From: a virus
Length of the DNA: 64,000 nt
Strand: one strand, 5' to 3'
UHGV virus genome: UHGV-0098755
Shown: piece by piece, positions 11,329 through 50,222 of the stretch
Layout: the number at the start of each line of letters is the position of its first letter
Numbering within the stretch: the first letter of the stretch is position 1
Made by a program: the position numbers and the translations under genes
Notes under the pieces: model-generated
Told to the model about the DNA's origin: nothing
What the model saw: only the letters and a program-made list of their open reading frames with translations
Databases searched by the model: none

Positions 11329-11352
11329 TAAAACAAAAGGGCCGAAGCCCTT
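11329..11352 (-). terminator. UUCG-tetraloop hairpin plus U-tract
   Basis: GGGC-TTCG-GCCC on - strand followed by UUUUGUUUU. Confidence 0.5.
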
Positions 11353-11355
11353 ATT

Positions 11356-11550
11356 TTATTTGAATTGCGCAATTCTTTTTTCTAAACAATCTGCGTAAGA
11401 TTTCATTGAGATGAACTGTGAAAGCAGTAATTCTTGTTCAACTTCATTAATCGTTAGAAACTTTGTGCTTTCTAAAAATTTGCTCAGTGCATTAATTTTG
11501 AGCATTAATTGATCGTATTCTTCTTTTACTCGTGCTTGATAACCTAACAT
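11356..11550 (-). CDS. Hypothetical protein (64 aa)
   Basis: ORF with SD. Confidence 0.5.
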   Translation of the reverse strand: MLGYQARVKEEYDQLMLKINALSKFLESTKFLTINEVEQELLLSQFISMKSYADCLEKRIAQFK

Positions 11551-11578
11551 AATTTTCCTTAGTTAAGGGCCGAAGCCC

Positions 11579-12517
11579 TTATTTAAATTGTTCAGTAACG
11601 TCTTCAACTACTTCGTATTGGCAGGTACGCATTTTAGCATCGTTGTAATCAATCGGAATTGATACTACATCACGCGGATGCACTTTAACTTTTACAACTC
11701 GACTGGTTGAACTGCCAAAGTGACGAATATAAGATTTAGAACACACATGCAGACCACGAGAACAAGTTTGTGTATCATCGTCATTCACACGAGTACGTGG
11801 CATTTTAACTACTTTACCCGGACTGTTATCAAAGGTGTTTGAGTGACAGTCAAAGTAGTTGTCACGAACTACTTTCCAAGCATAGAAGTAACCATCTTCG
11901 GTGATTTCAATATCGTTTGCTACCAAGAAATCAAAGAGTCGAGATACCGCTTTTTGGCTTGGGTTTTCCAACAGATTTTCCAAGAACGGAAAATAAAATT
12001 CAAAGTTTTCACCTTTTTCCATCGAATCGAGAATACGATCAACTAAACCAGACCGCAATTCAATATTTTGATAGAACAAGCTTCCACCTTCAATTCGAAC
12101 ATCACCAGAAATATATTTTTCAACAGCGCGACGAACATTAATTTTTTGCGCAGCTTCTTCCAACTTATCTGCTACAAGCAGATTAAGAATTTCCTGGAAG
12201 TTTGAATGAGTATTAGGAGTTGCGTTATAAGTTACACCGTCAACAGTAATTGAAATGAATTTTTTAGATGCATTCCAAATAATATCAGATTTAGCAACTG
12301 GAGCAATAACTGCATCGCTATTAACTTTAACTGTAATATCACCGCTAATAGTAACTTTGGAACGCTCAGCTTCTTCAGCATTTTTCAAAACACGACGGAT
12401 GGTGTCAACCGATACACCTTGCCAATCAGCCAATTCCTGCTGAGTATAATTACCACTTGAATACAGTTTAACAATTTCAGCTTGTTCGTTTTTGGTCAGG
12501 CATTTAATATTGTACAT
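11579..12517 (-). CDS. rIIB: rIIB protein (312 aa)
   Basis: 312 aa, downstream of rIIA. Confidence 0.9.
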   Translation of the reverse strand: MYNIKCLTKNEQAEIVKLYSSGNYTQQELADWQGVSVDTIRRVLKNAEEAERSKVTISGDITVKVNSDAVIAPVAKSDIIWNASKKFISITVDGVTYNATPNTHSNFQEILNLLVADKLEEAAQKINVRRAVEKYISGDVRIEGGSLFYQNIELRSGLVDRILDSMEKGENFEFYFPFLENLLENPSQKAVSRLFDFLVANDIEITEDGYFYAWKVVRDNYFDCHSNTFDNSPGKVVKMPRTRVNDDDTQTCSRGLHVCSKSYIRHFGSSTSRVVKVKVHPRDVVSIPIDYNDAKMRTCQYEVVEDVTEQFK

Positions 12518-12528
12518 AATTTTCCTTA

Positions 12529-14706
12529 TTAGGCCGCAAGGGCCTTCATAGTTTTAGCGATTTGAGAAACTTCATCATCACTTAAAGAGTTGCGATAACC
12601 GATGAAGTCGGAAACAATACGGAATTTCTTGGTAAACTCAGCAACCATTTTATCACTGTTTTTTGAAGCATTACGTGATAATTCATCAAAAAGATTAGTT
12701 ACTGTCCAGATGTCATGACCGATGGTACCTTTTCCACCGTTGAAATATATACCCTGCAATGAACTAACCATATTACCAAGGCGAGTATATTCTTCGGAAA
12801 CTTCATCTACACTGAAGTACTTCATCATAAAATCTAGTTCAGGATACTTAATAATTTTATCAATATATCGTTTAGCTGAACTTGAATAACCTACATACTT
12901 ATCATAATCTACATCATCAAAAGCATCTACATATAAATCACGCAAAGTTTCAAAAATACATTGGCACTGACCAAGTTCTTTTACCTTTTTCTGCAAAAGC
13001 GGACGAATAACATAAAATTCATTAATGCCAATAAGATTAGCCATACGAATCAAAATATTCGTAGATGGATGACAAAGCGATGTAGTGCCATCCATAGAGA
13101 AAATATCAGAACGATGCATGTATGCTACATAACCAGTAATTTCATCTGCTTCTGACGTAAGTGTAAACAGTTCCTCTTTTTCCCAGCGCCCGTCTTTAAT
13201 TTCAAACTTAAACGCAGTAGCAGCTTTAGGACGAGGAGCTTTACTTTTAACTGCCTTCGGAATATAACTTTTAACTAAAGCTTCAATTTCTGACAAATAA
13301 TGAATGTTAACTTCATCACTTTCAAACATTGCCATAATATCAGGGAGTAAATCAATCTGCGATTCTACTTCCGGATTAATAAACAGAAGACGCTCATTAT
13401 GATGAATATTCAAAGTGTTATTAAATTCACTATCATCTAACGCATGTGCTAATCCACGGACAATATTAACACGATTTTTAATATTATCAATAACGATATT
13501 AATTTTTGTTGTATTAATGCCAAACAGACGATAACTTGATGCAATGGCTGAAGTTTCATGGCTTTGCTTAATGCGTTTCAGTCGAGGGTCAAGATTTACT
13601 TCATACACAACCCCTGCATTACATAACTTACTGTCAGGTTCAAACATGCTCTGCATCTTCTTATATGACAGATTTTTAGTCGTGAATTTGACTGAATTGC
13701 TAATCATATAATCTCGAGCAGAATATCCCATCTTCATCAATTCACGGTATGTATGACGAGGAGATGTAGATTCTTTAAATCGTTTTACATCTTCATTAAA
13801 TGCTTTCTCACTGAGCTCTTTAACACGCTCAATAATATTTTTACGAGTACGATCATCTAATGAAAGAGCTTCGCGTGATGGAGCAATATCAAGTGAACCC
13901 ATTGGAAACTTAATGTAATTCACTTCATTGCGGATGCTTAACCAGTTACGATCTCTAATAACACCATCAATAGGATAAACAATGCCGCCATAGATAGCAT
14001 ACAATCCACCGCGATCAGGCCAGTATCTTTCTGGATTTACGCCGTAATAGTCATCAAAATCCGGAAAATAATCAATTTCGCGGTCAAGACCATTAATGAT
14101 AGCCAAATCTTTGAACGGTCGCATGATATAAGAAACTTCATAAGCAAAGTTTCTAAAGTCTTTTTCTTCAACTGGAACTACGATTTCAATACCAGTTTTA
14201 TCATCTGGACCCATTTCTTTTACGAATGTAGGTTTAATCTGCGGACCGTCACCATCCATGTAAGCTACATAACCACGAATTTCGCCTTTATGATATGAAG
14301 TAATACTAAATGTATCAGTATAACTAAACGGAGATTTAGAACCTAAACCAAATCCACCAATGAAATCGTTAGATTCAGCCTTGGATGAACTAAAGTATGA
14401 ATTATACAACCCAGGAGAATTATCATCACCCTGAATATCAAAATCGCTCATACCTGGACCAAAATCACGACAAACAAATCGCGGGTCTAATCGTCCGGGA
14501 ACTTGAATGATAAATTTTTCAGGATTTCCATTGAGAGCATGGGCATCAATCATATTAGTAATCAATTCACGGACTACTGCGCGAATCTTGTTTGTATACA
14601 AATCAGATGATAGAATTTTAAATACTTTAGGAGATGCTGTGATGCTAAATGCTTTTGATTTAGAACCATTACCAAGAATTGTTTCTTTTTCAGTGGTGAT
14701 AATCAT
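12529..14706 (-). CDS. rIIA: rIIA protein (725 aa)
   Basis: 725 aa, GHKL-like ATPase N-terminus. Confidence 0.9.
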
Positions 14707-14716
14707 AATTTCCTCA

Positions 14717-14920
14717 TTAATTCATATTGCGTTTAATAACTTCAGCAACTTCTAGTAGTTCATCTTTAGTTGCAGTGTCGGATTGAATTTTATCTCTAAT
14801 ATCCTTAAAGCGGTTTTTAAACTCTTCGGCTTCTCCCATATCGAAAAAGCGTTGAATGATTCTATATTCTCGATGAACTGCTTTATCAAAAAGTTCTAAA
14901 TTTACTCTATATGATTTCAT
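14717..14920 (-). CDS. Hypothetical protein rIIA.1 (67 aa)
   Basis: ORF between 39 and rIIA. Confidence 0.55.
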
Positions 14921-14939
14921 TTCAATATCCTCATTTGCC

Positions 14940-14980
14940 CAATTAATTATACCACATCCTTGTGGTAAAGTAAACTATTG
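14940..14980 (-). promoter_or_regulatory. Early promoter GTTTAC-N-TGTGGTATAAT with palindromic spacer
   Basis: RC reads GTTTACTTTACCACAAGGATGTGGTATAAT. Confidence 0.6.
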
Positions 14981-16795
14981 GCTCATCCATTCTTTACGAA
15001 GGTCAGCATTATCTCCCATGAGCATTTCAAAAAGTTCTTTCCAATTCTCAGGAAGTTTAACAACATCATATACTGGATTTTGAATCATCTCACGATATTC
15101 AGATTTTTCCAAAGAGCCAAGTCCCTTAATATAACGGATGTTATGTTTAGGTAGAGCATCTTTGGCACTCTCATATTCAGCGACTGTATAAAACCATTCT
15201 TGTTTTTTACCGACCTGAGCGATGATTACAGGAGTTTTGACAAAGCGAATTCTTCCTTGTTCAAACAGTTCTGGCCAATTACTGAAAAATCCGAGCAGAG
15301 AAGGATAAATGCTTCCTAGACCATCGTGGTCAGCGTCAGTCATAATAGCAATATTATGATAATTCAAGTTTTCGGCTTTTTCACCAAGAACTAATCCAGT
15401 GATTGCGCAAATATCAAACAGTTCTTTGTTTTTAAGCATATCAGCATATGACATACCCCAACTGTTGAGAACTTTACCACGTAATGGATAACCACCATGA
15501 AGTTCTTTATCACGAACATCAATAAGATATCCAATAGCAGAATCACCCTCAGTCAAGAAAAGAGTAGTATCAGCATCTTTACCACAAAGATTCGCTTTGA
15601 TATGTTTATGAACCTTAGCTTTAGAAGCCTTTTTAGCTGCTTTAGTTTCTGCTGCTTTTTCTGCCGCCAATTTACGAGCTAATGCTGCTTCAATAATCGG
15701 CATCAAAATCGCTTCATTATTCAAAATAGCACGTGAAATCTTTTTAGCATCAAGTTGAATATGACTACGGATTTCACCAAAAGGAGAAGTAAGTCGTTCT
15801 TTAGTTTGAGAATCAAATCGCATGTTTTTCATATCACGAACAAACATAACGATAGTCAAACATTCTTTAACGCGTGCTTTAGTTACATCAATTTTGAACT
15901 TGCGTTTGATTTGTGGAATAAGGTCTTCACAAATATCATCCATAACACAGTCAATGTGATGGCCACCATTCTTAGTATGAATGTTATTGACGTACGTCAA
16001 CTGACGAAAACCATCCGGTGAACGACCAACCGCAATAGAACAGTTTTCTTGTTCTTGAACGATAGCATGTTCATCATATTGGCGTGCATATTTCTTAAAA
16101 TTACCCTGAACCTTTTTACCATTAAAGGTAAATTGAATATCAGGATAAACTACTGCAAGTGTCTGGAGACGATCCAGTGTAATGTCAAGATAAACTTGGG
16201 ACAACTCATTAGTTTCAAATGACATAAAATCAGGAATGAAAGTAACACGAGTTCCTTTCCATTTTCCAGGAATATCTTCCCATGATTTATTTTCCATGCC
16301 ATTTGAACAACGAACTACAATATTATTTTGACCATCACCAGTTTCACCGACAAACATCACAGAAAAAATGTTTGTCAAACTAGAACCAACACCATTCATA
16401 CCGCCAGTGACGCGTTCTTTATCATCACCGAAGTTACCACCTGCTTTTGGAATAGTCCATGCAGCAACAGGACCAGGAATTTCTTCACCGGTAGGTGTTT
16501 TAACCATAGCCTGTGGAATACCGCGACCGTTATCTTCAACTGTTACTTGATTGTTTTTAATAGTAACATTAATTTTATTTGCGAATTTAAACTTAGTACG
16601 AATACCTTCATCTACTGAGTTATCGATAATTTCATCAATAAGCTTAACAAGACCAGGTACATACTGAACACTTTCCCATTTACCAAACAGAAAGCGCTCA
16701 TGCATTTCATTAGCTGAAGAGCCAATGTACATGCCGCTACGCTTTTTGATATGTTCAATATCGCTCAGAATTTTAATTTCATTCTTAATCATCAC
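14975..16795 (-). CDS. 39: DNA topoisomerase II large (ATPase) subunit, uninterrupted gene 39 (606 aa)
   Basis: GyrB-like GHKL ATPase plus TOPRIM in one ORF; no gene 60 split. Confidence 0.85.
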   Translation of the reverse strand: MMIKNEIKILSDIEHIKKRSGMYIGSSANEMHERFLFGKWESVQYVPGLVKLIDEIIDNSVDEGIRTKFKFANKINVTIKNNQVTVEDNGRGIPQAMVKTPTGEEIPGPVAAWTIPKAGGNFGDDKERVTGGMNGVGSSLTNIFSVMFVGETGDGQNNIVVRCSNGMENKSWEDIPGKWKGTRVTFIPDFMSFETNELSQVYLDITLDRLQTLAVVYPDIQFTFNGKKVQGNFKKYARQYDEHAIVQEQENCSIAVGRSPDGFRQLTYVNNIHTKNGGHHIDCVMDDICEDLIPQIKRKFKIDVTKARVKECLTIVMFVRDMKNMRFDSQTKERLTSPFGEIRSHIQLDAKKISRAILNNEAILMPIIEAALARKLAAEKAAETKAAKKASKAKVHKHIKANLCGKDADTTLFLTEGDSAIGYLIDVRDKELHGGYPLRGKVLNSWGMSYADMLKNKELFDICAITGLVLGEKAENLNYHNIAIMTDADHDGLGSIYPSLLGFFSNWPELFEQGRIRFVKTPVIIAQVGKKQEWFYTVAEYESAKDALPKHNIRYIKGLGSLEKSEYREMIQNPVYDVVKLPENWKELFEMLMGDNADLRKEWMSQ

Positions 16796-16814
16796 TTATC
16801 CTCGTTTGGTTTCG

Positions 16815-16846
16815 GGAATATTATACTCCAATAATCATAAAGCTAA
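16815..16846 (-). promoter_or_regulatory. Middle promoter (MotA box AGCTTTA, 12 bp, TATAAT) for gene 39
   Basis: RC: TTTAGCTTTATGATTATTGGAGTATAAT. Confidence 0.5.
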
Positions 16847-16861
16847 AGGCCCGAAGGCCTT

Positions 16862-17131
16862 TTATTTAAAACGAATAGTCGAATCCTTGAAGAATAGTCC
16901 AGAACATACTGTTCCTTCTACTTTCTGCCCAGTAGGTCCAATAGCACGAAATCCAGTATGCTGGAAATCATTTTCAGAGCAACCGAACCAATTATATCCA
17001 GTGATTTCAATATTAGTAAAACCACTTGAAGACAAAACTTTGGTTGCATTATCAGCATCAGTACATCCTATTAAAGACACTGCTAATACTAATGCTGCAA
17101 TAGAACGATTAATATATTTCATAATTTTCAC
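16862..17131 (-). CDS. Lipoprotein (89 aa), 39.1 position
   Basis: Signal peptide with lipobox LIGC. Confidence 0.6.
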   Translation of the reverse strand: MKIMKYINRSIAALVLAVSLIGCTDADNATKVLSSSGFTNIEITGYNWFGCSENDFQHTGFRAIGPTGQKVEGTVCSGLFFKDSTIRFK

Positions 17132-17499
17132 TTAAATTTAATGGCTTGAAGAAGACTAATAACTCTCAAGCGGCTTCTTTCATCTTTAACTGTAAAGGAA
17201 AGAGGGTCACCAGATTTCATAGTGATAGTGCATTCAAAATCAAAATTTTCGGGAACTTCTTCGAAGAAGTCAAATTCTTCAGCATAAATTAGAACATTAC
17301 TCTGAAAACTGTGAAGAATTTTTCCGTCATTTCCAGATGCTGTACTAATCATCGTAACATTATGACCTTTCATATCTTCAACGATAAATTCGCTTGTAGA
17401 TATTACAGCATTAATAGAACCATTCCTATAAATAGCAGACATTAGATATTTCTTTTCTTCGCCTTCGCGAATACGATATTTCTTACCGATTTTAAACAT
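17128..17499 (-). CDS. Hypothetical protein (about 123 aa from ATG at 17499)
   Basis: ORF; track start at 17505 is GTG. Confidence 0.5.
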   Translation of the reverse strand: MFKIGKKYRIREGEEKKYLMSAIYRNGSINAVISTSEFIVEDMKGHNVTMISTASGNDGKILHSFQSNVLIYAEEFDFFEEVPENFDFECTITMKSGDPLSFTVKDERSRLRVISLLQAIKFK

Positions 17500-17501
17500 A
17501 A

Positions 17502-17678
17502 TCACCCTTTAAGTAAGTCGTAAAATCCACCATTCACATGCTTAGGAGCGGAAACTAACCGAATAGCAATCCGATGACAATCAGGACATACATCAGTATC
17601 CCTTTCAGAAATTTTCTTGATTTTTTCGTATTCTTTTGCGCAGTCTTTGGATTGACATTTATAATCATAAAGAGGCAT
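17502..17678 (-). CDS. FmdB-like zinc-ribbon micro-protein (58 aa)
   Basis: Hand-translated MPLYDYKCQSKDCAKEYEK...CPDCHRIAIRLVSAP; two Cys pairs. Confidence 0.5.
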   Translation of the reverse strand: MPLYDYKCQSKDCAKEYEKIKKISERDTDVCPDCHRIAIRLVSAPKHVNGGFYDLLKG

Positions 17679-17680
17679 AA

Positions 17681-18100
17681 TTATTCCTTAAAGTGAGCTT
17701 TCAACATCTGATACAATGACCATGCCTGTTCATTATTTTCAATAGTAACTTTCATTACCGGGAATTCTGTGAAATCTTCTATTTGTTCTTGCTCTTCCTG
17801 CTCTTGTTCTTCAGCAGCCTGATATGGATTTTCAACTTCATCAAAGAACCCAGCTTCGTTAGTAGAGAGCCAGATAAAGTTTTCGTCAAGGATATCACCG
17901 CCGGCACAACGTTTGAGTACACCTATGGATGTCATAATTTTAGTAGGACGCCCAAGATAATCAGCATCTAAAATTTTAAAAGGCTCCATACCTAAACGTC
18001 GTGCATAGATTCCGTTATCAGTATGGTCTTTAATAAAATTTTCTTGAGCTTGTTTATTTTTAAATTGATACCATTTATTAACTTCAAATTTAATAGCCAT
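17681..18100 (-). CDS. Hypothetical acidic protein (139 aa), goF position
   Basis: ORF with [10 protein letters not shown] stretch. Confidence 0.45.
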
Positions 18101-18315: not shown

Positions 18316-18328
18316 TACAATTTCCTCA

Positions 18329-18607: not shown

Positions 18608-18692
18608 GTTATTTTCTGTATCAGTAGTTGATATTGATATAGTACCATAATCAACTACTGATGTATATAGTTTTATGAAAAAAATTTAAACT

Positions 18693-19181: not shown

Positions 19182-19257
19182 AGTTATCTCTCACTTGTTA
19201 AAAAGATTTTATACTTCACGGGACCATTATACTCTGGTCCCAAGAGTTTGTAAACTA

Positions 19258-19802: not shown

Positions 19803-20342
19803 TTATCTCATTTCAATAAAATCTACGAGTTCAGCATGCGATTTGCGGAACATTACTTGGTGCCCACCAATGATAACTTCATCTTCAGGAACTTCGTATA
19901 CAGCGAGATAAAATCCTTTAGAAGATAATTCTTCCCGTTCTTCTCGCGTGAACCATCTCATCATATCATATTCGCTAGCGAAAGCAAAATGATAAAGACC
20001 TATAAACCATCCTGGAATATGATATTCTACTCCAACATAATCTTTCTTGAACTTAGTATTAATTACTATATTAGCGTTTTTAACTAATAGTTTATCTTCG
20101 TGTGGTAAAGGAATTCTTTTATTATTATCGCTATGATGCATAAAATTAGGTCTGTCATAACCTACGTGTAATAGCCACTCTTCGCTCCATGAATCTATTA
20201 TACTCCTGTACGGCGTTATTTGAACACAAAGATTTCGACGTATTGTTATAGCATCTTCATAATCAAGAATACTAAACGATGATTCAACACGATAAATTTT
20301 CATTTTATTATCCTCAGTAGCTATGGTGTTATAATACCACAA
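19803..20342 (-). CDS. Hypothetical protein (179 aa)
   Basis: ORF. Confidence 0.5.
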   Translation of the reverse strand: MWYYNTIATEDNKMKIYRVESSFSILDYEDAITIRRNLCVQITPYRSIIDSWSEEWLLHVGYDRPNFMHHSDNNKRIPLPHEDKLLVKNANIVINTKFKKDYVGVEYHIPGWFIGLYHFAFASEYDMMRWFTREEREELSSKGFYLAVYEVPEDEVIIGGHQVMFRKSHAELVDFIEMR

Positions 20343-20366
20343 CTAACCGAGGAAGTAAACAACTTT

Positions 20367-24646: not shown

Positions 24647-25266
24647 TCAACTACCTCAATATCATAAACTTTAAATGTTCCAAATGAATCGTGTAATTTT
24701 TCTTTTGAAATAGAAGTTATTCTATACTTTCCAATTGGAATCATCCATTCTTGTTCACGCACAATCATCATTAAGTTATCAGTACGCTCTGAATCTAGCC
24801 CATCAGTATCTTCATACGTGTACTTGAACTCAGTATTAGGAGAAGAAAGTATAATATCGCTGATATGGTCAGAATAATTAAAAGCTTTATCAGTTTTTAA
24901 GCGGAATATTATTTTAGTAAAATATTCAGCATAAGAAAAAGAACATGCTGTGAGTAAACTAGTAGTAAATGAATCTACCCTGTTCGTTGAAAACACTTCT
25001 CCAACTTGTAAATCTTTAATAAGTTCTTTTGTCGATTTTGATATACCACGATATAACTGATAAGGCGATTTAGTTAAATGCTTTTTAATGATTTTATTCA
25101 ACTGCCGATGAAGAGCTTCATTCTTTTTGGCTTCCATACATTGCCAAAGAACAGACTGCTCAAAGTCAGTAAATTTTTCACAGACCTTTTTATACATATC
25201 ATATTGAAAATCAACGCTTTCAGCTTTTATAGATAACTGTTCAACATCTGCAAGATTAATAATCAT
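24643..25266 (-). CDS. modB: ADP-ribosyltransferase ModB (207 aa)
   Basis: 207 aa, overlapping stop/start with modA. Confidence 0.6.
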   Translation of the reverse strand: MIINLADVEQLSIKAESVDFQYDMYKKVCEKFTDFEQSVLWQCMEAKKNEALHRQLNKIIKKHLTKSPYQLYRGISKSTKELIKDLQVGEVFSTNRVDSFTTSLLTACSFSYAEYFTKIIFRLKTDKAFNYSDHISDIILSSPNTEFKYTYEDTDGLDSERTDNLMMIVREQEWMIPIGKYRITSISKEKLHDSFGTFKVYDIEVVE

Positions 25267-25333
25267 GATAGCCTCCGTATACTTCAGAAGCTATCATATC
25301 ATCGTTAGAAAGGAAAGTAAACAACTTTTTGAA

Positions 25334-27368: not shown

Positions 27369-27467
27369 AGTGCTCTCCTCTATAAGATAATTCTATTATA
27401 CCACACTCATTTTGATATGTAAACTGCAAAAACGAAAAAAGGAACCCCGAAGGATTCCTTAAATTAT

Positions 27468-31772: not shown

Positions 31773-31830
31773 AACAATCTCCTCATTTAACCAACAAGAC
31801 TACTATACCATAGTCTCGTCAGCTTGTAAA

Positions 31831-33267: not shown

Positions 33268-33630
33268 TTAAAAGAATTTAAATTTTTTCTTTGACCTTTT
33301 ATTAAATGCATCTTGTAGTTGCATTGTAATACATTTTTCTACATGAGGAGCTAACTCAGCTTTTCTTTCTTGGTCAAGAACAGCAAAGTCCATTACAACC
33401 TTTCCATCAACCCAATCCAGTTTAGTTACATACACTATATGTGTAGAACCATCTTCTAGTTTAATGACAATCTCCTGGATAACATTTTCCATGGCAGATT
33501 TAATTATCTTAAGAGATTCATTAAAAAGACGTTCTTTTCTTTCTTCTTCCCCCTCCGAAGAGGGGGATTCATCGATAATTTCTAGATCTAAATCTAAATC
33601 ATCTTTACTCATTAAATTCTTCCATATCAC
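33268..33630 (-). CDS. 40: gp40-like protein (120 aa)
   Basis: Position between 41 and uvsX. Confidence 0.5.
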   Translation of the reverse strand: MIWKNLMSKDDLDLDLEIIDESPSSEGEEERKERLFNESLKIIKSAMENVIQEIVIKLEDGSTHIVYVTKLDWVDGKVVMDFAVLDQERKAELAPHVEKCITMQLQDAFNKRSKKKFKFF

Positions 33631-37382: not shown

Positions 37383-37407
37383 TGAAAAAGGGACCTGGAG
37401 GTCCCTA
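37383..37407 (-). terminator. Rho-independent terminator after gene 43
   Basis: GGGACC-UCCA-GGUCCC followed by UUUUU on - strand. Confidence 0.65.
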
Positions 37408-40133: not shown

Positions 40134-40151
40134 AGCCCGAGTTATTAGGCT
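40134..40151 (-). promoter_or_regulatory. Gene 43 translational operator hairpin (loop AAUAACUC)
   Basis: - strand RNA AGCCU-AAUAACUC-GGGCU just 5' of SD AAGGAA. Confidence 0.6.
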
Positions 40152-40193
40152 CTTGATATATTATACTCCAAATAAGGGGCCGAAGCCCCTTGC

Positions 40194-42088: not shown

Positions 42089-42139
42089 AATTTCCTCATT
42101 CAAGTTTTAGTGTAAATTATAAAGGGCCGAAGCCCTCTA

Positions 42140-42826
42140 TTAAAAATCGTGGGTAGAATCAGCTTCAAGAGCTACTACATAATTCGCGTGTTCACCTTCA
42201 AATTTAGCAGCACCTTGTTTACCTTTTGCCCAGAGCAGAAGTTTATAATTTCCTGGTTGCATTTTCATATTTGCCATATTGATAATGAAATTAAATGTAT
42301 TTTCACCATCATAATCACCAAGAGTCAAAGAATATTTAACACGGGTTAAAGCAGAATCTTCTACTTTATTAAAACCGTTAATTACGATTTTACCTTCTTT
42401 TACTGTGATAGCAATTGTATCAATCTGCAGACCGCGAGATACACGCAACAGTTGTTGAAGGTCTTCAGCTTTAATTTCAGTAACAACAGATGCTACCGGG
42501 AATGGAATTGGTTTATTAGGAGCAACGACTGTACTCGGATCAGCTGCCGGCCAAAAAATTGTTGAACGGGCATCAGCAATTTTAATATTACCATCTTCTG
42601 ACTGGGAAATTTCTGCATCATCATTAACTAGAGACAGAATACCGAGAAAACCGTTCAAATCGTAAATCGCTACATCAAAATCAATAGTGTCAGAAATATT
42701 TGCTTCCGCATAAGTTGTACCATTAACCGCGCGAGTCATAATAAATTGACCGGATTTAAGCATAATACCGGAGTTAATAGTAGCGAAATTTTTAAGCAGA
42801 GCAGTAGTATCTTTAGACAGTTTCAT
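42140..42826 (-). CDS. 45: Sliding clamp gp45 (228 aa)
   Basis: 228 aa; synteny. Confidence 0.9.
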   Translation of the reverse strand: MKLSKDTTALLKNFATINSGIMLKSGQFIMTRAVNGTTYAEANISDTIDFDVAIYDLNGFLGILSLVNDDAEISQSEDGNIKIADARSTIFWPAADPSTVVAPNKPIPFPVASVVTEIKAEDLQQLLRVSRGLQIDTIAITVKEGKIVINGFNKVEDSALTRVKYSLTLGDYDGENTFNFIINMANMKMQPGNYKLLLWAKGKQGAAKFEGEHANYVVALEADSTHDF

Positions 42827-43271: not shown

Positions 43272-43280
43272 AATACACCT

Positions 43281-43469
43281 TTAGTCATAATAATCAGTAA
43301 CAGTCCAAGCTTCATTTCTATTGGACATTATTTTCGTATATTCTGATTTAAATGCATTCTTAAGCATAGATTCAGTAACTATATGCTCTTCATTAGAAAA
43401 ATTATTTCTCAGAATATATCGTTTTATTTCAGGAATAGTTAATAGATGCTGTCCAGTTGAATATTCCAT
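43281..43469 (-). CDS. Hypothetical protein (62 aa)
   Basis: ORF. Confidence 0.5.
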   Translation of the reverse strand: MEYSTGQHLLTIPEIKRYILRNNFSNEEHIVTESMLKNAFKSEYTKIMSNRNEAWTVTDYYD

Positions 43470-43486
43470 GTTTTTCCTCCATAGAG

Positions 43487-43510
43487 ATTATACTCTAATA
43501 AATTAAAGCA
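43487..43510 (-). promoter_or_regulatory. Middle promoter (MotA box TTATGCTTTA, 11 bp, TATAAT)
   Basis: RC: TATGCTTTAATTTATTAGAGTATAAT. Confidence 0.55.
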
Positions 43511-43524
43511 TAATCTCTTATAAA

Positions 43525-45207
43525 TTAAACCATTACAGTAAATCGACCAACTTTCTTCATTTGAAGATGCTGACCATATTCTTGCGGGTCATGGTCTTTA
43601 TGCGAAATTATAAAAACATTAGTGTTTTTCATTGAATTTATAATATTAGCTACACCTTTAATACCTTCGGCATCAAATGACCCATCAAACACTTCATCGA
43701 GTATTAATGTACTAATACTAACACCAGATACAATAGAAGCAATATCACGCCAAGTAAATAAAAGAGCAATATCGATTCGTGCTTTTTCACCTTCACTAAA
43801 TGAAGCATAACTAAAATCTTCACGACCACGGGATTTAATTGTCTCATTAAATTCTTCATCTAATGTAAACACATAATCCGCTTCCATTATTTTAAGATAA
43901 TGGTTAATCTGCTTATTAAATAATGGAATGTACTTTTTAATAATAGCACCTTTAATACCAGAATCTTTGAGCATATCAGTCAAAATTCCTCGGTGGTATT
44001 TTTCCATTACTAAATTAGTTTTTGTCTTAACAATTTTATCAAGTTCTTCTTGAAGCAGTGCTATTTCATCAGCATGGTCAATAAACTCAGATGATGCTTT
44101 TTCTATAGCCGCTTTAACTTTTTTAGCTTTATCTACTGCTGCGATCAGAGATTGCTTTTTATTGCGAATATCATTTGCCAACGACTGCTGAGTTTTAATA
44201 TTATCTCGGTATTCATCAACAAGAACTTTTAAATTATCACGATGTGTTGAAAGCTGTTCAAACGAATGCGTACATTCAGAAACTTTATCTTTAATTTTAG
44301 AAACAACTTTATCACCGGAACTCAATTGTGACAAACAGGTTGGACATAATCCGCCTTCGTGATACATATTAATGACTTTATTATACGAGTCAATTTTTGA
44401 TTTAATTAAAAATGCTTCTTGACCGATTTTATTAAACGCATCAGTTGGGTCTTCGTCTAAAACAATATTAACTAATCTTTCATTAGCTTCTTCTATTTCC
44501 GATTTTAGCGTTCTAGCTTCTTTTGCCAAATCATCATACATATTTTGTAGACGAGTAAGGTTGTCACCCGTTAATTTTTTCTGGCGTTCAACGTTATCAT
44601 TATATATTTTAATTTGCTGGATAATACTATCTTTTTTAACATCAAGCACTTGGTTTTGTGAATTTAATTCACGTATTAGTGCTTTATTAAGCTTATCCAT
44701 TTCAGCTAATGTTCCTACCTCAAGCAGGTCTTCCACAAGCTTTCTTCGCGCAGGGGTCGACAAACCCATGAAAGGGGTATACCCTGCTGTACCAAGGACA
44801 ACAATCTGCTTGAAACTGGCATATGACATTCCGATAAGCTGTTCAAATTCTGCTTGGAAATCTTTACTGCTGGCAGATTCATTAAGACGTGTACCGTTAA
44901 CGGTGATTTCGAAAACGTTTGGTTTTTGTCCTCTTTTGATATAGTACTTTTTCTCATCATATTCCATCCACAGTTCAACTAAAAGTTCTTTCTTATTTGT
45001 GCTGTTTATTAATTGACCTTTCTTTACATCACGAAATGGCTTGCCAAAAAGCCCAAATGTGATGGCTTCTAACATAGTAGACTTACCACCGCCATTTCGT
45101 CCAGTAATAAGAGTTTTTTGAACCTTATCTAGTTGAATGTCAATAGGATTTCCACCTACTGACATTATATTTTGATACCTAACTCGGTTTAGTTTAAAAT
45201 TCTTCAC
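43525..45207 (-). CDS. 46: Recombination nuclease subunit gp46 (Rad50/SbcC-like, 560 aa)
   Basis: Walker A GRNGGGKST, coiled coil, 560 aa. Confidence 0.9.
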   Translation of the reverse strand: MKNFKLNRVRYQNIMSVGGNPIDIQLDKVQKTLITGRNGGGKSTMLEAITFGLFGKPFRDVKKGQLINSTNKKELLVELWMEYDEKKYYIKRGQKPNVFEITVNGTRLNESASSKDFQAEFEQLIGMSYASFKQIVVLGTAGYTPFMGLSTPARRKLVEDLLEVGTLAEMDKLNKALIRELNSQNQVLDVKKDSIIQQIKIYNDNVERQKKLTGDNLTRLQNMYDDLAKEARTLKSEIEEANERLVNIVLDEDPTDAFNKIGQEAFLIKSKIDSYNKVINMYHEGGLCPTCLSQLSSGDKVVSKIKDKVSECTHSFEQLSTHRDNLKVLVDEYRDNIKTQQSLANDIRNKKQSLIAAVDKAKKVKAAIEKASSEFIDHADEIALLQEELDKIVKTKTNLVMEKYHRGILTDMLKDSGIKGAIIKKYIPLFNKQINHYLKIMEADYVFTLDEEFNETIKSRGREDFSYASFSEGEKARIDIALLFTWRDIASIVSGVSISTLILDEVFDGSFDAEGIKGVANIINSMKNTNVFIISHKDHDPQEYGQHLQMKKVGRFTVMV

Positions 45208-45467
45208 AAAAGATTCCTTTTAATGTATCTTTTAGACCATTCTATCATATCATCATAATCTAAAAAGTATTCATCAAATTCAGCCATGCAAACAACACCT
45301 TGCGCTGCTTTTGATGTGATATAAATTATTCCAACATATCTAGAATCTTCTTCGGTGTAATCAATATTTGCTATGAATTCATCATTAATGTCAAATGTCG
45401 AAAACTTCACAGTATGCATCCTTAATACAAGATACAGCCATATCTTGTAATGATTTAGGTGTGTCAT
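45204..45467 (-). CDS. Hypothetical protein (46.1/46.2 block)
   Basis: ORF; overlaps neighbour. Confidence 0.45.
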   Translation of the reverse strand: MTHLNHYKIWLYLVLRMHTVKFSTFDINDEFIANIDYTEEDSRYVGIIYITSKAAQGVVCMAEFDEYFLDYDDMIEWSKRYIKRNLL

Positions 45468-45654
45468 TATCTAAAATGTTGAAGTTAAAAGATACAGCCC
45501 AGTCAGTGCAGACCGTAACCTTTTTAATACAATTATCTTCAACTTCTAGGGGTTCAAACCAATATTCAATAATTTCTTTATGCCCAATATCATCTTTTAC
45601 TTCGCATTCAAAATGCTGACACATCATAACATTTTTAAATTCATCAAAAGTCAT
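45391..45654 (-). CDS. Hypothetical protein (87 aa)
   Basis: ORF. Confidence 0.45.
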   Translation of the reverse strand: MTFDEFKNVMMCQHFECEVKDDIGHKEIIEYWFEPLEVEDNCIKKVTVCTDWAVSFNFNILDNDTPKSLQDMAVSCIKDAYCEVFDI

Positions 45655-46670
45655 TGTGTTGCCTCTACATATAACTGATTTGCATATTGAATAAGTGCTT
45701 CACGGTCAGAATCAGTGATGTCTGGAATTGCATTAATGTATTCTTCCATCAATGTCTGAAGAGATTGAACTTCAACTTCTTCACTATCATCTGACTCGAC
45801 AGAGTTATCAATCTTTGACACAACTCGTAATGAATGCACAACTTTTTCTAGTTCAGATTCGAACTTCGTTAGATTTTTGTCTACCTCAGTTACTATAACA
45901 CGCACTGATAGATTTGTAAAATCTTTATAGTCAATTTTTCCTTTAAATGGATACTGAATTCGACGATGCCAGGTAGTGTTGTTTGGAATAAATTCCATTC
46001 GTTCTGTTTCTGTATCAAACATCCAGAACCCACGAGGGTCATTCTCGTCACCCGCAGTTAGTGTCCATGGTGTCCCAATATATCTGACGTTAGCAGCCTC
46101 AGAGATAGTATGGAAGTGACCAGACCACACTTCTTTATAAGTCTTAAGGAAATCAGGTTCAAGACCGTGAGATTTCATTCCTTTATAAAAATAAAATCCA
46201 TTCAGTTCCCAGTGACCAACACAAAAAGAAGCAGATGAAGTTTTGATGTGTTCAAGAATTTCACCAGTATTTTCTTCGCACATCCAAGGAATTAAATCAA
46301 TCAAACATCCGTCAAAATCTACTGTAGTAGGCTTATCATATACTTTAACATTAGGGTATTTAGCCAAAAGCTCAGTAGAAGCATTTGGAGTTAAAGTATT
46401 TTTAAAGTGCATATCATGGTTTCCTACAACAGTATGTAGGGTAATACCAGCATCATCAAGCATTTGAACTATTTCACGGGCAAACTCCATAGTTTTATGC
46501 GTGATTGCTTTTCGCACATCAAAAATATCACCGTATTGAATCCATGTAGTAATTCCGTTTTTCTTAGAATATTCTATCGCTTGCTTAATTCCATCCAGCT
46601 GAATAGATTGAACCCACTCATCATCAGCTTTAACGCCTAAATGCCAATCACCTAAATTTAAAATTTTCAT
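45651..46670 (-). CDS. 47: Recombination nuclease subunit gp47 (Mre11/SbcD-like, 339 aa)
   Basis: Calcineurin-like phosphoesterase motifs DWHLG, GNHD. Confidence 0.9.
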   Translation of the reverse strand: MKILNLGDWHLGVKADDEWVQSIQLDGIKQAIEYSKKNGITTWIQYGDIFDVRKAITHKTMEFAREIVQMLDDAGITLHTVVGNHDMHFKNTLTPNASTELLAKYPNVKVYDKPTTVDFDGCLIDLIPWMCEENTGEILEHIKTSSASFCVGHWELNGFYFYKGMKSHGLEPDFLKTYKEVWSGHFHTISEAANVRYIGTPWTLTAGDENDPRGFWMFDTETERMEFIPNNTTWHRRIQYPFKGKIDYKDFTNLSVRVIVTEVDKNLTKFESELEKVVHSLRVVSKIDNSVESDDSEEVEVQSLQTLMEEYINAIPDITDSDREALIQYANQLYVEATQ

Positions 46671-46846
46671 ATATCAAGAACCGTCATTGAAATGCAAAAT
46701 AAAATTATTGAAATAAATCCATCTGGAGTACTAAAGAACCCAATCCAACACGCTCTGGTGAATAGATAAAATGCAAGAAAAAGTATCACATATCCAAGAA
46801 ATATCATTATATCAAACTCCGTATAAAGCTAAAGGGCCGAAGCCCT

Positions 46847-48049
46847 TTATTTTGTAATAATGTCAAACTGCTCTTTAAAGCAGAAGCTTGAATCTTGGTG
46901 CTGATACAAAAATTCATAAGCTTTTTCACGTTCACGGTCATAAAGAGCTCGGTCAGATGACAGTTCTTTAATACGTTCAAATGTTGATTCCATGTCATTT
47001 TCATCAAACCAAACGATACCGCTATCGTGTGAAATTAATGGAGTATTATCAACACGGAATTTTAAATTTTCGCCAGTAGATTTCCAAAATACTGGAATTG
47101 TTCCACATGCACCAAGCTCGAGATGAGTGTATTCTAAAGAACGCTGTAGATATTTTTTATCTAATTTACTCAGCTGATAACCAAATCCGGATTTACTCAT
47201 GCGTTCAAGCATTTCGCTATTTACATAACGGTCAAGAATTTGCGTTGGCAAATTAGGAGCAATTTTAATTTGGTCTACTTGATGAAGACGATAATACTCG
47301 TATGGAATTCCTTTTTCTTTAATAGGAATGAACGCTGGAGAACGTTCCAGACCTTCCATAATAGTACTTAGTCCTGCAGGTTTAAGATGTTTTTCATGAA
47401 AATCAAACATCTGATAAAAGCCTTTCCATGTAGTAGTACGACCAATCCAACGGTTGATATTCATGTTAATTTCAGAAACATCTTTCCAGTAGGTTGATCG
47501 AACCTTCGCAATATCCATAGGAGGCTGAAAGTTATATACGGTCGGTGCTTCTTCAATATCATCAAACAAAGAAACAGTTTCCGGATACCATTCTTTCATT
47601 AAAACTTTATTAAAATCACCATTATCAGAATGGCTAAAAATAACATCAGCTCGACGAACAGTTTCTTCTAATCCCAAATTTCGACGCAAAGAAAGAGAAG
47701 AATGGTCATGCTGATAAACTACAACACGAACCGAAGGTTTAATGTTATCAATAATTTTTTTATAGTTATTAATCGTGTCTTCTTCAACTGAAGTAGCAGG
47801 AACTGAATTGATAACTAGAATATCACAATCATTTACCAGCTTAAGTGTTTTATCGTATTCTTTTGCCAATAAAACTGGAATTGAAAATGACTTATAATCA
47901 TGCGCACAATTACGAGTAAATGATTTATCTTTAGCATAAACCAAAGTTACTTCATGACCATTTTTAATAAACCAATCACGCTGCTCAAGAGAAAATTTAG
48001 TTACACCGCAACCTTCAAGACCTCGAGCCATAAAAATACATACTTTCAT
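46847..48049 (-). CDS. a-gt: Alpha-glucosyltransferase (400 aa)
   Basis: 400 aa at T4 a-gt position. Confidence 0.75.
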   Translation of the reverse strand: MKVCIFMARGLEGCGVTKFSLEQRDWFIKNGHEVTLVYAKDKSFTRNCAHDYKSFSIPVLLAKEYDKTLKLVNDCDILVINSVPATSVEEDTINNYKKIIDNIKPSVRVVVYQHDHSSLSLRRNLGLEETVRRADVIFSHSDNGDFNKVLMKEWYPETVSLFDDIEEAPTVYNFQPPMDIAKVRSTYWKDVSEINMNINRWIGRTTTWKGFYQMFDFHEKHLKPAGLSTIMEGLERSPAFIPIKEKGIPYEYYRLHQVDQIKIAPNLPTQILDRYVNSEMLERMSKSGFGYQLSKLDKKYLQRSLEYTHLELGACGTIPVFWKSTGENLKFRVDNTPLISHDSGIVWFDENDMESTFERIKELSSDRALYDREREKAYEFLYQHQDSSFCFKEQFDIITK

Positions 48050-48292
48050 TTAATGTCCTCATTGTTTTGGTTTATTTTACCAAAAATTTATAAAGCAATA
48101 TAGGAGCCGAGGCTCCTATCCACATAATACACCATACAGAGGCTCATTAGAGCTTCTAAATTTTATGCGCTTATATGTTATAGTTCCTTCTGCTTTAGCT
48201 TTATCATGAGACTCTTTAAAGCGTCTCATCATTTCTACTTTAGAGGAACGAATTTTATTATAATCTATTTCAGAAGTCTGGGTGTTCATCTT

Positions 48293-48499
48293 TCACAGTT
48301 GCCACCATTTTTTGACTTGATAAGAATCAACCCACACTTTCATATTAGGGTCTGCTCTTACAATAGGAGGATTAACTTCTTTAATTGAACTATCATGGTA
48401 TTCTTTTTCAGAAATTTTCACACAAAGATGACCATTCAAAGATTCAGTAAATCCTGCATTAATTTTAAGACGCTTGAATTTTACGTGTGTAAGCATCAA
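48293..48499 (-). CDS. Hypothetical protein (68 aa)
   Basis: ORF. Confidence 0.45.
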   Translation of the reverse strand: MMLTHVKFKRLKINAGFTESLNGHLCVKISEKEYHDSSIKEVNPPIVRADPNMKVWVDSYQVKKWWQL

Positions 48500-48782
48500 T
48501 CATATCCTCAATCTGTGATCTAGTAGTCTTCCAAAGAATACTAATGAGTTCATCATTATATGGCTGTTTTAGAATATCCCGACTTTTCTTGATAGCATAT
48601 TCGTATTGAGCAAAATTATTGTTTTCAGCTGCAATCTGAGCGTGTTTATAAAGACGGTTCAGTTCGCGTTTGTTTTTAGACAATAACTTATTTGCTTTTC
48701 TTTCTGCTTCAAGACGGTTCTTTTCTTCAATAGAAGAAATAAGCTTTTCCACTTCATCATTAATTTCGGGTTTATCAGTCAT
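48465..48782 (-). CDS. Hypothetical protein (105 aa)
   Basis: ORF. Confidence 0.5.
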   Translation of the reverse strand: MTDKPEINDEVEKLISSIEEKNRLEAERKANKLLSKNKRELNRLYKHAQIAAENNNFAQYEYAIKKSRDILKQPYNDELISILWKTTRSQIEDMIDAYTRKIQAS

Positions 48783-48783
48783 A

Positions 48784-49002
48784 TTATTTCTCTAATATAA
48801 AATAAAAATCATCATCTGTTAAATGATACCGATAGTTTAATTCTACACCATTAGATTTAAAAGCGGTATCATACGGATTTTCTGGATCAATATCAATGTC
48901 AAGAGCTAAAACTTCCCTGAGATACATTTTAAGTAAATAGGGAATAGCTTCAACTTCAGGTATTTCTTCCAAGAATCCGGAGAGGTTAATCGTTAGCCTC
49001 AT
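48784..49002 (-). CDS. Hypothetical protein (72 aa)
   Basis: ORF. Confidence 0.5.
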
Positions 49003-49543
49003 ATAAAAAATCCAAACTAGGAGAATCGTCTACAACACTTTTCTTTTCAGCCCCCGGTGTTCTATAGGTTGATTCTTCGTAATGCGTCATTTTATCGTAG
49101 ATGTCTTGAATAAAAGTTTCATCTACTAACGCAACCATATCGTCGTCACGACTGTCATAGACATTGTGAACGAAGTAACTATATTTCTTTGCAACTTCCT
49201 TACGTTCTTTTTTAATACGTTGGACGAATGCATTAAAACAAGCTTGAGTTATATATGCATGTGGGTTTTTATATTTCGTTTCATCAAAATTATGAAGCCC
49301 CTTAATAGAAGCTTCTATACCATCTGCAATCATTTCTTGTTTCCAAGACTGGGTGTATCCTGAAAAGTTGAAACGTTTAGATAAGCCTTCTGCAATAAGC
49401 ATAATGGCTAATCCGATAGTATCATTCTGACGAACTACTTTATTTGGGTCTTTATTATTTGCTAATTCTGTTTTCCAATCAATAATAGCTTGTAAAAGCT
49501 CTTTATTGTTTACGTAATTATATTTAGGCTTAGTTTCTGACAT
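48986..49543 (-). CDS. 55: Late-transcription sigma factor gp55 (185 aa from MSETKPKY)
   Basis: 185 aa. Confidence 0.85.
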
Positions 49544-49625
49544 TTTCACCTCTTAGCTCAATTCATAGATCTATTATATCATAATATTTGAAGATCTATC
49601 TTAAAGCATAGAGGATGAATCAATT

Positions 49626-49841
49626 TTACGTATTCATTAAGTTAGCCGCTTCGAGAGCTGCATCTAGTGAATCAAATTGATCGACATATTCAATTAATTC
49701 GCCATAATTAGCATATAACCACCATTGGCTAAATTCATACTCAAGGATGAATCCATTTCCTTCAATTTGAGTTAAACCATTGCCGTTTGTATTTACTTCA
49801 TATCCGGCAAGACGCAAATCGTTAATAAGAGCTTCGTTCAT
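49626..49841 (-). CDS. Hypothetical protein (71 aa)
   Basis: ORF. Confidence 0.5.
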   Translation of the reverse strand: MNEALINDLRLAGYEVNTNGNGLTQIEGNGFILEYEFSQWWLYANYGELIEYVDQFDSLDAALEAANLMNT

Positions 49842-49843
49842 AA

Positions 49844-50170
49844 TTATACCTTAGTAATTTTCAGGTCTGCAAATTTTTTCTTGCGTTGATTTTTCATGCG
49901 ACGAATAGTTTTATCGGAAATTTCATGTTTTTGATAAGCTTTAGATTCTACGCCAAAAGCTTTAACATCAAATTCTGACAAGATATATTGAACTAACAAT
50001 TCACGGACAGTATTGCGTCCAATCTTCTGATCATTCTGTTTCATCGTCTGATGAAGCTCTTTTTCCCATTTATCCAAAATTTGAGGAGTTACAATATCGC
50101 CTTTTTCTAGCAGAGAAACTACTTTATCATATGCGTAAGAATTGATGGCGTTTTTAATTTGAATAGTCAT
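49844..50170 (-). CDS. Hypothetical protein (108 aa)
   Basis: ORF. Confidence 0.5.
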   Translation of the reverse strand: MTIQIKNAINSYAYDKVVSLLEKGDIVTPQILDKWEKELHQTMKQNDQKIGRNTVRELLVQYILSEFDVKAFGVESKAYQKHEISDKTIRRMKNQRKKKFADLKITKV

Positions 50171-50222
50171 ACATTATCCTCAATTACGTTAAAATTTTAT
50201 TATCCAAAAAGGGCCGAAGCCC

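Follow-up and report, generated by a model that had tools for sequence, protein, structure and literature searches.

UUCG-capped hairpins at gene ends of a T4-like phage

The DNA analysed here, a 64 kb window of the virus genome UHGV-0098755 (64,000 nucleotides (nt), numbered from its first letter), belongs to a T4-like phage (Tequatrovirus), and its gene ends carry recurrent short hairpins capped by a UUCG tetraloop, which are the subject of this report. The window is about 96-97% identical to T2, pSs-1 and T4 relatives, and in the Tequatrovirus genome matches this identity spans rIIA-39-rIIB-denB and 43-regA-62-44-45-46-47-a-gt-55. Its G+C content is about 35%, its genes lie mostly on the minus strand, and the gene order is collinear with that of T4 (NC_000866), running from gene 37 through rIIB and rIIA as far as the nrdC region. 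A greedy gene map gave 114 genes with 92.6% of the window coding, and T4 gene names are used for the homologues.

A scan of both strands for UUCG loops with flanking complementarity yielded 11 strong C(UUCG)G hairpins with stems of 6-9 bp, ten on the minus strand and one, at 2779, on the plus strand (Table 1; hairpins are named by their first position). The original prediction had claimed that GGGC-UUCG-GCCC hairpins recur at gene 3' ends, and the recurrence is real: the 12-mer GGGCCGAAGCCC is present in seven copies where shuffles of the window give an expectation of 0.00, six of them reading GGGCCGAAGCCC on the plus strand (11339, 11567, 40177, 42124, 46834 and 50211) and one inverted (2782-2793). 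Several coordinates needed revision, as the copy placed at 42114-42125 lies 10 nt away at 42124-42135, and the one placed at 16847-16860 is not this 12-mer and is instead a variant with a GGCC stem at 16845-16862. The wobble variant proposed at 27441-27459 does exist, with one G.U pair, and three strong hairpins (2779-2796 on the plus strand, 8668-8683 and 33548-33567) had been missing from the list. Two of the four hairpins described as having other loops, 6862-6883 and 48100-48119, have a CUCG loop that is one base off UUCG and are counted here with the family, whereas the description holds for 37389-37406 (UCCA) and 63730-63746 (CUAGA). All 13 UUCG and CUCG hairpins fold as drawn, with a minimum free energy of -10.7 to -18.9 kcal/mol and z scores of -1.9 to -5.0, so that the proposed check by folding free energies came out in favour of the structures. 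The first base of the stop codon lies within the stem or at most 10 nt upstream of it in 9 of the 13, in agreement with the claim that most copies lie within 20 nt of a stop codon, and the genes upstream are rIIB, a-gt, a-gt.2, 45, 39.1, 55.3, regA, 37, denB.1, motA.1 and soc. No Rfam family matched anywhere in the window at the gathering score.

The distribution of the loop points to RNA. The transcribed strand contains CUUCGG 10 times within 4,746 intergenic nt, compared with 8 times within 59,254 coding nt, an approximately 16-fold enrichment (Fisher p = 1e-7), and when all sense-strand hairpins of -7 kcal/mol or better are taken together, UUCG caps 10 of the 27 intergenic ones, with CUCG capping two more, versus 1 of the 59 coding ones (p = 2e-5 for UUCG). 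Moreover, all 11 strong copies read UUCG, and not CGAA, in the sense RNA (p = 5e-4); the copy at 2779 lies in the plus-strand tail-fibre operon, and its loop is turned round along with transcription. Because a DNA signal would be indifferent to orientation, whereas the loop follows the direction of transcription, these hairpins are best regarded as an RNA-level feature. The T4 genome itself contains 34 UUCG hairpins with stems of at least 5 bp versus 9.5 in shuffles, about 23 of them strong C(UUCG)G hairpins found in early and late regions alike. Chance and base composition were considered as an explanation and are excluded by the shuffles, the intergenic enrichment, the orientation and the T4 counts.

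It is almost certain that these elements are the C(UUCG)G-tetraloop hairpins of T4-type phage mRNAs. CUUCGG hairpins were first described in T4 mRNA by Tuerk et al. (1988, PNAS 85:1364), and the passages of PMC4371310 and PMC8948821 that cite this work report that hairpins of the form (X)2-8CUUCGG(Y)2-8 are notably abundant in T4 intergenic regions and extraordinarily thermostable, and in the latter also that they block reverse transcriptase. Durand et al. (2006, PMC1702504) likewise remark that T4 intergenic stem-loops such as terminators 'often' carry a UUCG tetraloop. The hairpins of the window share with those of Tuerk et al. the UUCG loop closed by a C-G pair, the short inverted repeat, the mostly intergenic location, the sense orientation in mRNA and the same gene junctions, and differ from them by single-base stem changes at a few sites and by CUCG in place of UUCG at one. 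The elements are therefore already known, the original observation correctly rediscovers the CUUCGG hairpins of T4, and the comparative results given below leave this classification unchanged.

Every UUCG or CUCG hairpin of the window has a T4 counterpart at the same gene junction. The T4 copies at gene 37/38, 45/44 and 55.3 were found with shorter or G.U-containing stems, and the copy at the rIIB stop, in which one stem base is absent from T4 and the 5' arm is 1 nt shorter, was found by alignment only. Compared with the window, the T4 sequence NC_000866 is without one G or C in the stems that match 2779-2796, 11564-11581, 42119-42140 and 50209-50224, which makes the T4 versions of these four hairpins imperfect; the missing bases may reflect true bulges or else gel-compression errors of older sequencing at such stable hairpins. 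The T4 set also includes the translational-bypass hairpin of gene 60, a UUCG hairpin at T4 2834-2857. In the window the large topoisomerase subunit is one continuous open reading frame (ORF) of 606 aa at 14975-16795 on the minus strand; as genes 39 and 60 are fused here, the T4 39/60 split, the mobA/60.1 insertion and the gene 60 bypass hairpin are all absent.

Table 1. Hairpins of the window, in order of position, with the stem arms written on either side of the bracketed loop
Hairpin	Coordinates	Strand	Structure (sense RNA)	Position and 3' flank
gene 37/38	2779..2796	+	GAGGGGC[UUCG]GCCCCUU	gene 37 stop 2773-2775; gene 38 AUG 2803
motA.1	6862..6883	-	AGGGAGAGC[CUCG]GCUCUCCCU	then UUUUUAUUU; terminator-like
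stp	8668..8683	-	GGCGUC[UUCG]GACGCC	in last codons of 26-aa stp (..G-V-F-G-R-Q-stop); no U-tract
denB.1	11337..11352	-	AAGGGC[UUCG]GCCCUU	between denB.1 and denB; then UUGUUUUA
rIIB	11564..11581	-	UAAGGGC[UUCG]GCCCUUA	rIIB stop UAA is first three stem bases
39.1 homologue	16845..16862	-	AAAGGCC[UUCG]GGCCUUU	at stop; upstream of gene 39
soc	27439..27460	-	AAGGAAUCC[UUCG]GGGUUCCUU	then UUUUCGUUUUU; terminator-like
gene 40	33548..33567	-	UCCCCCUC[UUCG]GAGGGGGA	40 nt past uvsX stop; no U-tract
gene 43	37389..37406	-	AGGGACC[UCCA]GGUCCCU	then UUUUCAUA; ordinary terminator-like, not UUCG
regA	40174..40191	-	AAGGGGC[UUCG]GCCCCUU	starts 5 nt after first base of regA stop; no U-tract
gene 45	42119..42140	-	AUAGAGGGC[UUCG]GCCCUUUAU	overlaps gene 45 stop; no U-tract
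a-gt	46830..46849	-	UAAAGGGC[UUCG]GCCCUUUA	a-gt stop UAA inside stem
a-gt.2 homologue	48100..48119	-	AUAGGAGC[CUCG]GCUCCUAU	at stop; U-tract marginal
55.3 homologue	50209..50224	-	AAGGGC[UUCG]GCCCUU	overlaps stop; then UUUGGAUAAUAAAA; upstream of 55.2
63730	63730..63746	-	GGGGCC[CUAGA]GGUCCC	then CUUUUUUAUUU; terminator-like with early promoter cassette, not UUCG

Conservation at three junctions of T4-like phages

The end of regA was compared across 80 loci from IMG/VR that encode RegA relatives, 41 of which are T4-like (RegA 60-99% identical). All 41 T4-like loci have a stable hairpin where the regA unit ends, with 18 distinct stems among them, and in most loci it lies shortly upstream of a box resembling GGAGTATAAT. 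The loops are UUCG in 33 loci, UACG in three and UCCG in one (37 of 41 conform to UNCG), the remainder being GAAA in two, UUAC in one and an octaloop in one, and 39 of the 41 hairpins are without a U-tract. When 12 distinct versions were aligned on their loops, seven of eight pairs had changed on both sides and 94% of the cells were paired, versus 26-64% with the partners slid and 71% in shuffles; this alignment is centred on detected hairpins and hence leans to pairing, a bias from which the presence in 41 of 41 loci and the comparison of control windows described below for uvsX are free.

In 22 of the T4-like loci an ORF of 38-79 codons directly follows regA, its start overlapping the regA stop (TAATATG, TAATG); these ORFs are of several unrelated kinds, and neither T4 nor the phage studied here has one. 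In most of these 22 loci the hairpin is found about 3-7 nt past the new stop, still upstream of the GGAGTATAAT box in most, and no hairpin is present where the regA stop and the start of the inserted ORF overlap. The position of the hairpin is thus tied to the 3' end of the unit, or to the promoter, and not to regA itself.

The same picture was obtained at two other junctions. Between genes 45 and 44 a hairpin is kept across relatives in which gp45 identity ranges from 54 to 100%, with differing stems (GAGGGC, AAUGGGGU[UACG], UGGGCC, UAGGGAC[UUUG], AGGGAC and UGAGGCC); by inspection, no U-tract follows the strong gene 45/44 hairpins of these relatives, and some of them abut the Shine-Dalgarno (SD) sequence of gene 44. 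After uvsX, a hairpin of -10 kcal/mol or better lies within 90 nt of the stop in 95% of 40 non-redundant loci, compared with 1% of 315 control windows of the same size taken from within uvsX (p = 1e-23, Mann-Whitney). The stems at the end of uvsX are unrelated to one another (CCCCCUC, UCUCCCUC, GGAAUCCUC, AAGCUCCCCUU, ACUGGCUGGG and others), and most of them lie in the gene 40 frame.

Copies with and without a U-tract

A U-tract was defined as at least 5 T (U) in 8 nt, starting 0-2 nt after the stem on the sense strand. Among the 11 UUCG copies only 27439 and 11337 are followed by one, and the other nine (2779, 8668, 11564, 16845, 33548, 40174, 42119, 46830 and 50209) are not; a tract is also found after the CUCG hairpin 6862, marginally after 48100, and after the non-UUCG hairpins 37389 and 63730, and a separate terminator-consensus scan agrees with these assignments. 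The view of the original prediction that a subset with a U-tract is terminator-like fits these six hairpins, which by their sequence look like Rho-independent terminators and would act as such, usually with an early promoter next. The likeness to Rho-independent terminators, a G+C-rich hairpin and a U-run after a stop, is clear at 27439, 11337, 6862, 37389 and 63730, whereas the nine remaining UUCG copies depart from it and the regA-end and 45/44 orthologues almost never have a U-tract.

The six sites have features of their own. Early-type promoters (TTTACA-17-TATAAT or TACTAT) lie downstream of 6862, 27439 and 63730; the one after 27439 is TTTACA-17-TATAAT, and the one after 6862 is GTTTAC..N17..TACTAT, upstream of motA. 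The T4 soc counterpart of 27439 is AAGGACUCC[UUCG]GGAGUCCUU, from which the window differs by one pair changed on both sides and one that became G.U. The hairpin at 6862 has the lowest folding energy of the 13 (-18.9 kcal/mol, z -5.0). Its CUCG loop is the exact reverse complement of the CGAG loop of T4 inside an otherwise identical perfect inverted repeat, which looks like a loop 'flip', that is, a small inversion. At 48100, where the T4 orthologue has a UUCG loop, TGCTTTA..TAAAAT with the look of a middle promoter follows, upstream of a-gt. T4 has AGGGAGCC[UUCG]GGCUCCCU at the place orthologous to 63730.

The hairpin at 11337 is terminator-like on both strands. On the plus strand the terminator consensus is satisfied at 8668-8683, 11337-11352, 11564-11581, 37389-37406 and 46830-46849, because the 5' flanks of these hairpins are A-rich. 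Copies with an upstream A-tract and no downstream U-tract might accordingly be terminators of antisense (plus-strand) transcription, as the consensus scan flags these same five hairpins on that strand. We regard this as very improbable: the loop would be CGAA, which is not specially stable, the A-rich 5' flank is largely due to UAA stops and an AT-rich genome, and the regA-end and 45/44 orthologues have no consistent upstream A-tract.

The copies without a U-tract occupy several kinds of sites. Directly downstream of 16845, whose sequence is identical in T4, lies aGCTTTA-N12-TATAAT, which resembles a middle promoter with a MotA box (for the consensus, see PMC2988021), and there is also a GGAG 16 nt past the stem. 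The copy at 46830, also identical in T4, is followed by GCTTTA-N12-TATAAT and then by the GGAG that is the SD of 47.1. At the end of regA, 40174 is followed by AUUUGGAG-UAUAAU (-10 box 40160-40165), with a GGAG 5 nt past the stem, and the gene 43 leader, and downstream of both hairpin and -10 box stands the gp43 operator hairpin (40134-40152, minus strand, GAGCC-UAAUAACU-CGGGCU); in relatives the stem of this operator varies (AGAC..GUCU, GGAC..GUCC) and a loop motif of the form AAUNACUCG is kept. We also considered the DNA of the 40174 hairpin as the MotA box of gene 43, as GGGGCTTCGG resembles TGCTTYA. Its GCTTC core is 2 bp too far from the -10 box (spacer of about 15 versus 13), and the motif is unconserved in orthologues, which have GACTTCG, GCCTACGG or GCCGAAAGG, so that the idea was rejected as a general explanation. 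Elsewhere, a translation start is near: the AUG of gene 44 lies 31 nt past the stem of 42119 (z -4.9), the SD and AUG of denB.1 begin 14 nt past the stem of 11564, which has no U-tract on the sense strand, and the UGA stop of stp overlaps the SD of ac (GAGGAAAAUAUG) at 8668, a sequence identical in T4. The claim that copies without a U-tract are followed by an SD thus holds for 42119, 11564 and 8668, whereas promoter elements follow 16845, 46830, 48100 and 40174. The copy at 33548 (-16.7 kcal/mol) sits about 45-65 nt into the reading frame of gene 40.

At 2779 the SD of gene 38, AAGGAG, stands immediately 5' of the stem, no U-tract follows, and the spacing between SD and AUG falls from 23 nt to 5 nt once the 18-nt hairpin is folded out. 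In T4 gene 38 a structure cuts this spacing from 22 to 5 nt, and destabilising mutations lower initiation (Uzan & Miller 2010, PMC3014915). The hairpin at 2779-2796 is this published, translation-enhancing split Shine-Dalgarno structure itself. It is the single copy of this kind; in the others the hairpin precedes the SD of the following gene, and the T4 structures at gene 38 and gene 25 (PMC3014915) form the known group to which it belongs.

These data make it very probable that one building block is put to several uses, as a terminator, as a boundary hairpin and as a translation enhancer. Since the G+C-rich stem of 6-9 bp is capped by an exceptionally stable UUCG loop, the hairpin is expected to form immediately on transcription, and what follows it would determine the outcome. 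Copies with a U-tract (27439, 11337, 6862, marginally 48100, and the non-UUCG 37389 and 63730) would terminate transcription, and the copy in the gene 38 leader would loop out its 18 nt, place the SD 5 nt from the AUG and enhance translation. At the second and largest class (40174, 16845, 46830, 50209, 42119, 11564, 8668 and 33548), RNA polymerase presumably reads through, and the hairpin would mark the end of the upstream message ahead of a promoter, a RegB-type GGAG/U site or a ribosome-binding site. Being without a U-tract, these copies should be unable to terminate efficiently, and genes 43, 44, 40/41, ac, denB.1 and 47.1 would depend at least partly on read-through. After a downstream cut, by RegB at GGAG/U or by RNase E in an AU-rich leader, the hairpin would halt 3'-to-5' exonucleases, leaving the upstream cistron intact, and it might also prevent pairing of the adjacent initiation or operator region with upstream sequence.

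For this exonuclease-barrier role of the second class we see about even chances; it is suggested by the position of the copies, their conservation without a U-tract and two published RegB sites. In T4, RegB cuts the GGAU of orf 55.2 efficiently and the GGAG of orf 47.1 moderately (PMC1702504), and both in T4 and in the window the motifs begin 4 nt past the stem of 50209, where the downstream sequence is identical in T4, and 10 nt past the stem of 46830. RNase II and RNase R can enter at RegB cuts, and synthesis of gp43 is stimulated by RegB processing (PMC3014915). The interpretation of the original prediction, terminators in some places and 3' stability or processing barriers in others, is therefore borne out in part.

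Several points weigh against so unified an account. A GGAG/U lies within 20 nt downstream in 4 of 10 copies against a background of 0.15, which is a borderline enrichment (p = 0.05), and GGAG is also a common SD. Termination, read-through and protection are all deduced from sequence, the covariation alignment has the bias mentioned above, and some copies are terminator-like on the antisense strand too. Furthermore, T4 deletions with GGGC/GCCC inverted repeats at their end-points have been noted (PMC2839356, PMC4122927), and given this link a DNA-level role could coexist with the RNA role.

A competing account is that all copies are weak or factor-assisted terminators or attenuators that partition early transcription, their sole job being to stop or pause RNA polymerase. 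Gene ends are indeed where the copies lie, in many cases with a promoter close behind, there is partial U-richness (4 T in 8 nt) after 40174, 42119, 46830, 16845 and 50209, and stem-loops of the PeSL type (discussed below) from RB49 and phi1 terminated in a reporter assay (PMC2839356). Nevertheless, this account is improbable in view of the nine of 11 UUCG copies that fall short of 5 T in 8 nt on the sense strand, the absence of a U-tract from 39 of 41 regA-end orthologues and the strong 45/44 hairpins that likewise have none, some of them abutting an SD. It is established for T4 that genes 45-44-62-regA and uvsX-40-41 need read-through from upstream promoters, which also speaks against it. 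In addition, the copies in stp, in gene 40 and in the gene 38 leader are incompatible with efficient termination because downstream essential genes would be killed.

Alternatively, the copies that do not terminate may be primarily translational, insulating a ribosome-binding site or operator, setting the geometry between SD and AUG, or uncoupling terminating ribosomes. Such a role is documented for the gene 38 copy (PMC3014915), and the spacing is confirmed here. The stop codon lies inside or touches the stem in six copies, so that a terminating ribosome must melt the hairpin, the next AUG lies 7-31 nt past the stem at 2779, 8668, 11564, 46830 and 42119, and the hairpin is absent where stop and start overlap, between regA and an inserted ORF. 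Translational operators lie downstream as well, namely the gp43 operator seen here at 40134-40152 and the RegA-controlled site of gene 44. However, 40174, 16845 and 48100 are followed by a promoter that lies 50-60 nt before the next AUG and are not near a ribosome-binding site, the gene 40 copy stands about 45-65 nt inside a reading frame, and a translational role is not exclusive of a role at the 3' end. As the primary role it therefore seems to us rather unlikely.

Returning to the reading of one building block with several uses, a tentative extension, which we consider possible but on balance doubtful, is that the second-class copies are half of a three-in-one module conserved among T4-like phages and made up of the tetraloop hairpin, a RegB-type GGAG/U a few nt downstream and, overlapping it, the -10 box of the next gene (GGAG-TATAAT). 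Early RNA that reads through such a module would be cut right past the hairpin, and the same DNA would launch the downstream middle transcript. The capped upstream message would then resist exonucleases and end, at 40174 and 50209, with about 5-6 nt of 3' overhang, a length too short for RNase R. The conserved, covarying in-frame hairpin of gene 40 past uvsX may be the same device under coding constraint. Two observations touch on this module: the -10 box after the regA-end hairpin is usually preceded by GGAG (GGAGTATAAT), an arrangement present in the window at 40160-40169 and 16821-16830, and the read-through RNA GGAGUAUAAUA resembles the published RegB/S1 consensus GGAGAAUAAAA. Together they suggest that one DNA segment may be both a promoter -10 box and an RNA cleavage site.

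Relation to known cassettes and significance for T4-like phages

Stem-loop-promoter cassettes termed PeSL and, with a Mot box, PmSL have been described in T4-like phages (Arbiol et al. 2010; Comeau et al. 2014; PMC2839356, PMC4122927), and part of the present set resembles them by consensus match. As in PeSL, the stem-loops at 6862, 27439 and 63730 are followed by AT-rich sequence and a match to the early promoter TTTACW-N17-TAYWAT; as in PmSL, those at 16845, 46830 and 48100 are followed by a TGCTT Mot box and a -10 box. By the same consensus, no promoter of either type adjoins 42119, 11564, 8668, 33548 or 2779. PeSL cassettes are defined as repeated in hyperplastic regions with the sequence conserved among copies, whereas here extended sequence is shared by 6862 and 63730 only, and the UUCG loop is undiscussed in the PeSL papers (PMC2839356, PMC4122927). 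The cassette that these two hairpins have in common lies downstream of them. When 63640-63830 is compared with T4 55330-55520, the U-tract, the AT-rich stretch and the early promoter are near-identical and the upstream gene is unrelated, so that homology breaks off at the 63730 hairpin, as expected under the PeSL shuffling model; it is the one breakpoint case seen.

It could therefore be asked whether the GGGC...GCCC inverted repeats act in DNA, as recombination or shuffling sites of the PeSL/PmSL type or as a small mobile element that has spread. The hairpin exactly at the breakpoint with T4, the extra ORFs inserted immediately upstream of the regA-end hairpin in 22 loci and the inverted loop at 6862 would all fit such sites. 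Yet the constant UUCG orientation in the sense RNA of all 11 copies is not what an orientation-indifferent DNA signal would give, and orthologous sites keep the structure while their stems change completely and their loops stay thermostable RNA tetraloops (UNCG, GNRA). When the copies were aligned with 30-nt flanks, they proved similar only in the hairpin and its A-rich and U-rich edges, which shows that the UUCG copies do not come from a longer mobile cassette; with no homology past the hairpin, a mobile element or duplicated cassette was rejected as their source. A DNA-level role is thus quite improbable as the reason for the hairpins, and shuffling at them may be a secondary consequence.

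Hairpins that stabilise 3' ends are familiar from other systems, such as the REP/BIME palindromes of enterobacteria and the 3' inverted repeats of chloroplast mRNAs. Should the barrier model hold, the second-class copies would resemble these in being non-terminating hairpins that guard the 3' ends of cistrons against 3'-to-5' exonucleases. There is no sequence relationship, however: REPs are imperfect palindromes of about 35 nt with a family consensus and protein partners, whereas the T4 hairpins are 16-22 nt long, have their own stem each and are defined by the tetraloop.

Intergenic hairpins of another kind were observed on the minus strand at 19219-19242, 20318-20345, 25264-25298, 31789-31824 and 43483-43518, with stems of 8-16 bp and a -10-like box (TATAA or GTATA) in or beside the loop. 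At least the one at 25264-25298 carries the SD and AUG of the following gene in its 3' arm (GGAGG..AUG). These hairpins resemble a known arrangement of T4 in which read-through transcripts sequester the ribosome-binding site and transcripts begun inside the hairpin leave it free.

Our analysis rediscovers the observation behind the definition of the UUCG tetraloop, which is now standard in RNA structural biology and engineering, and sharpens an old question, namely the role of the non-terminator copies in the phage. Practically every T4-like phage retains hairpins without a U-tract at regA/43, 45/44 and uvsX/40, even as the stems turn over; after insertion of a gene the hairpin is found at the new 3' end, and one of these hairpins is maintained inside a coding sequence.

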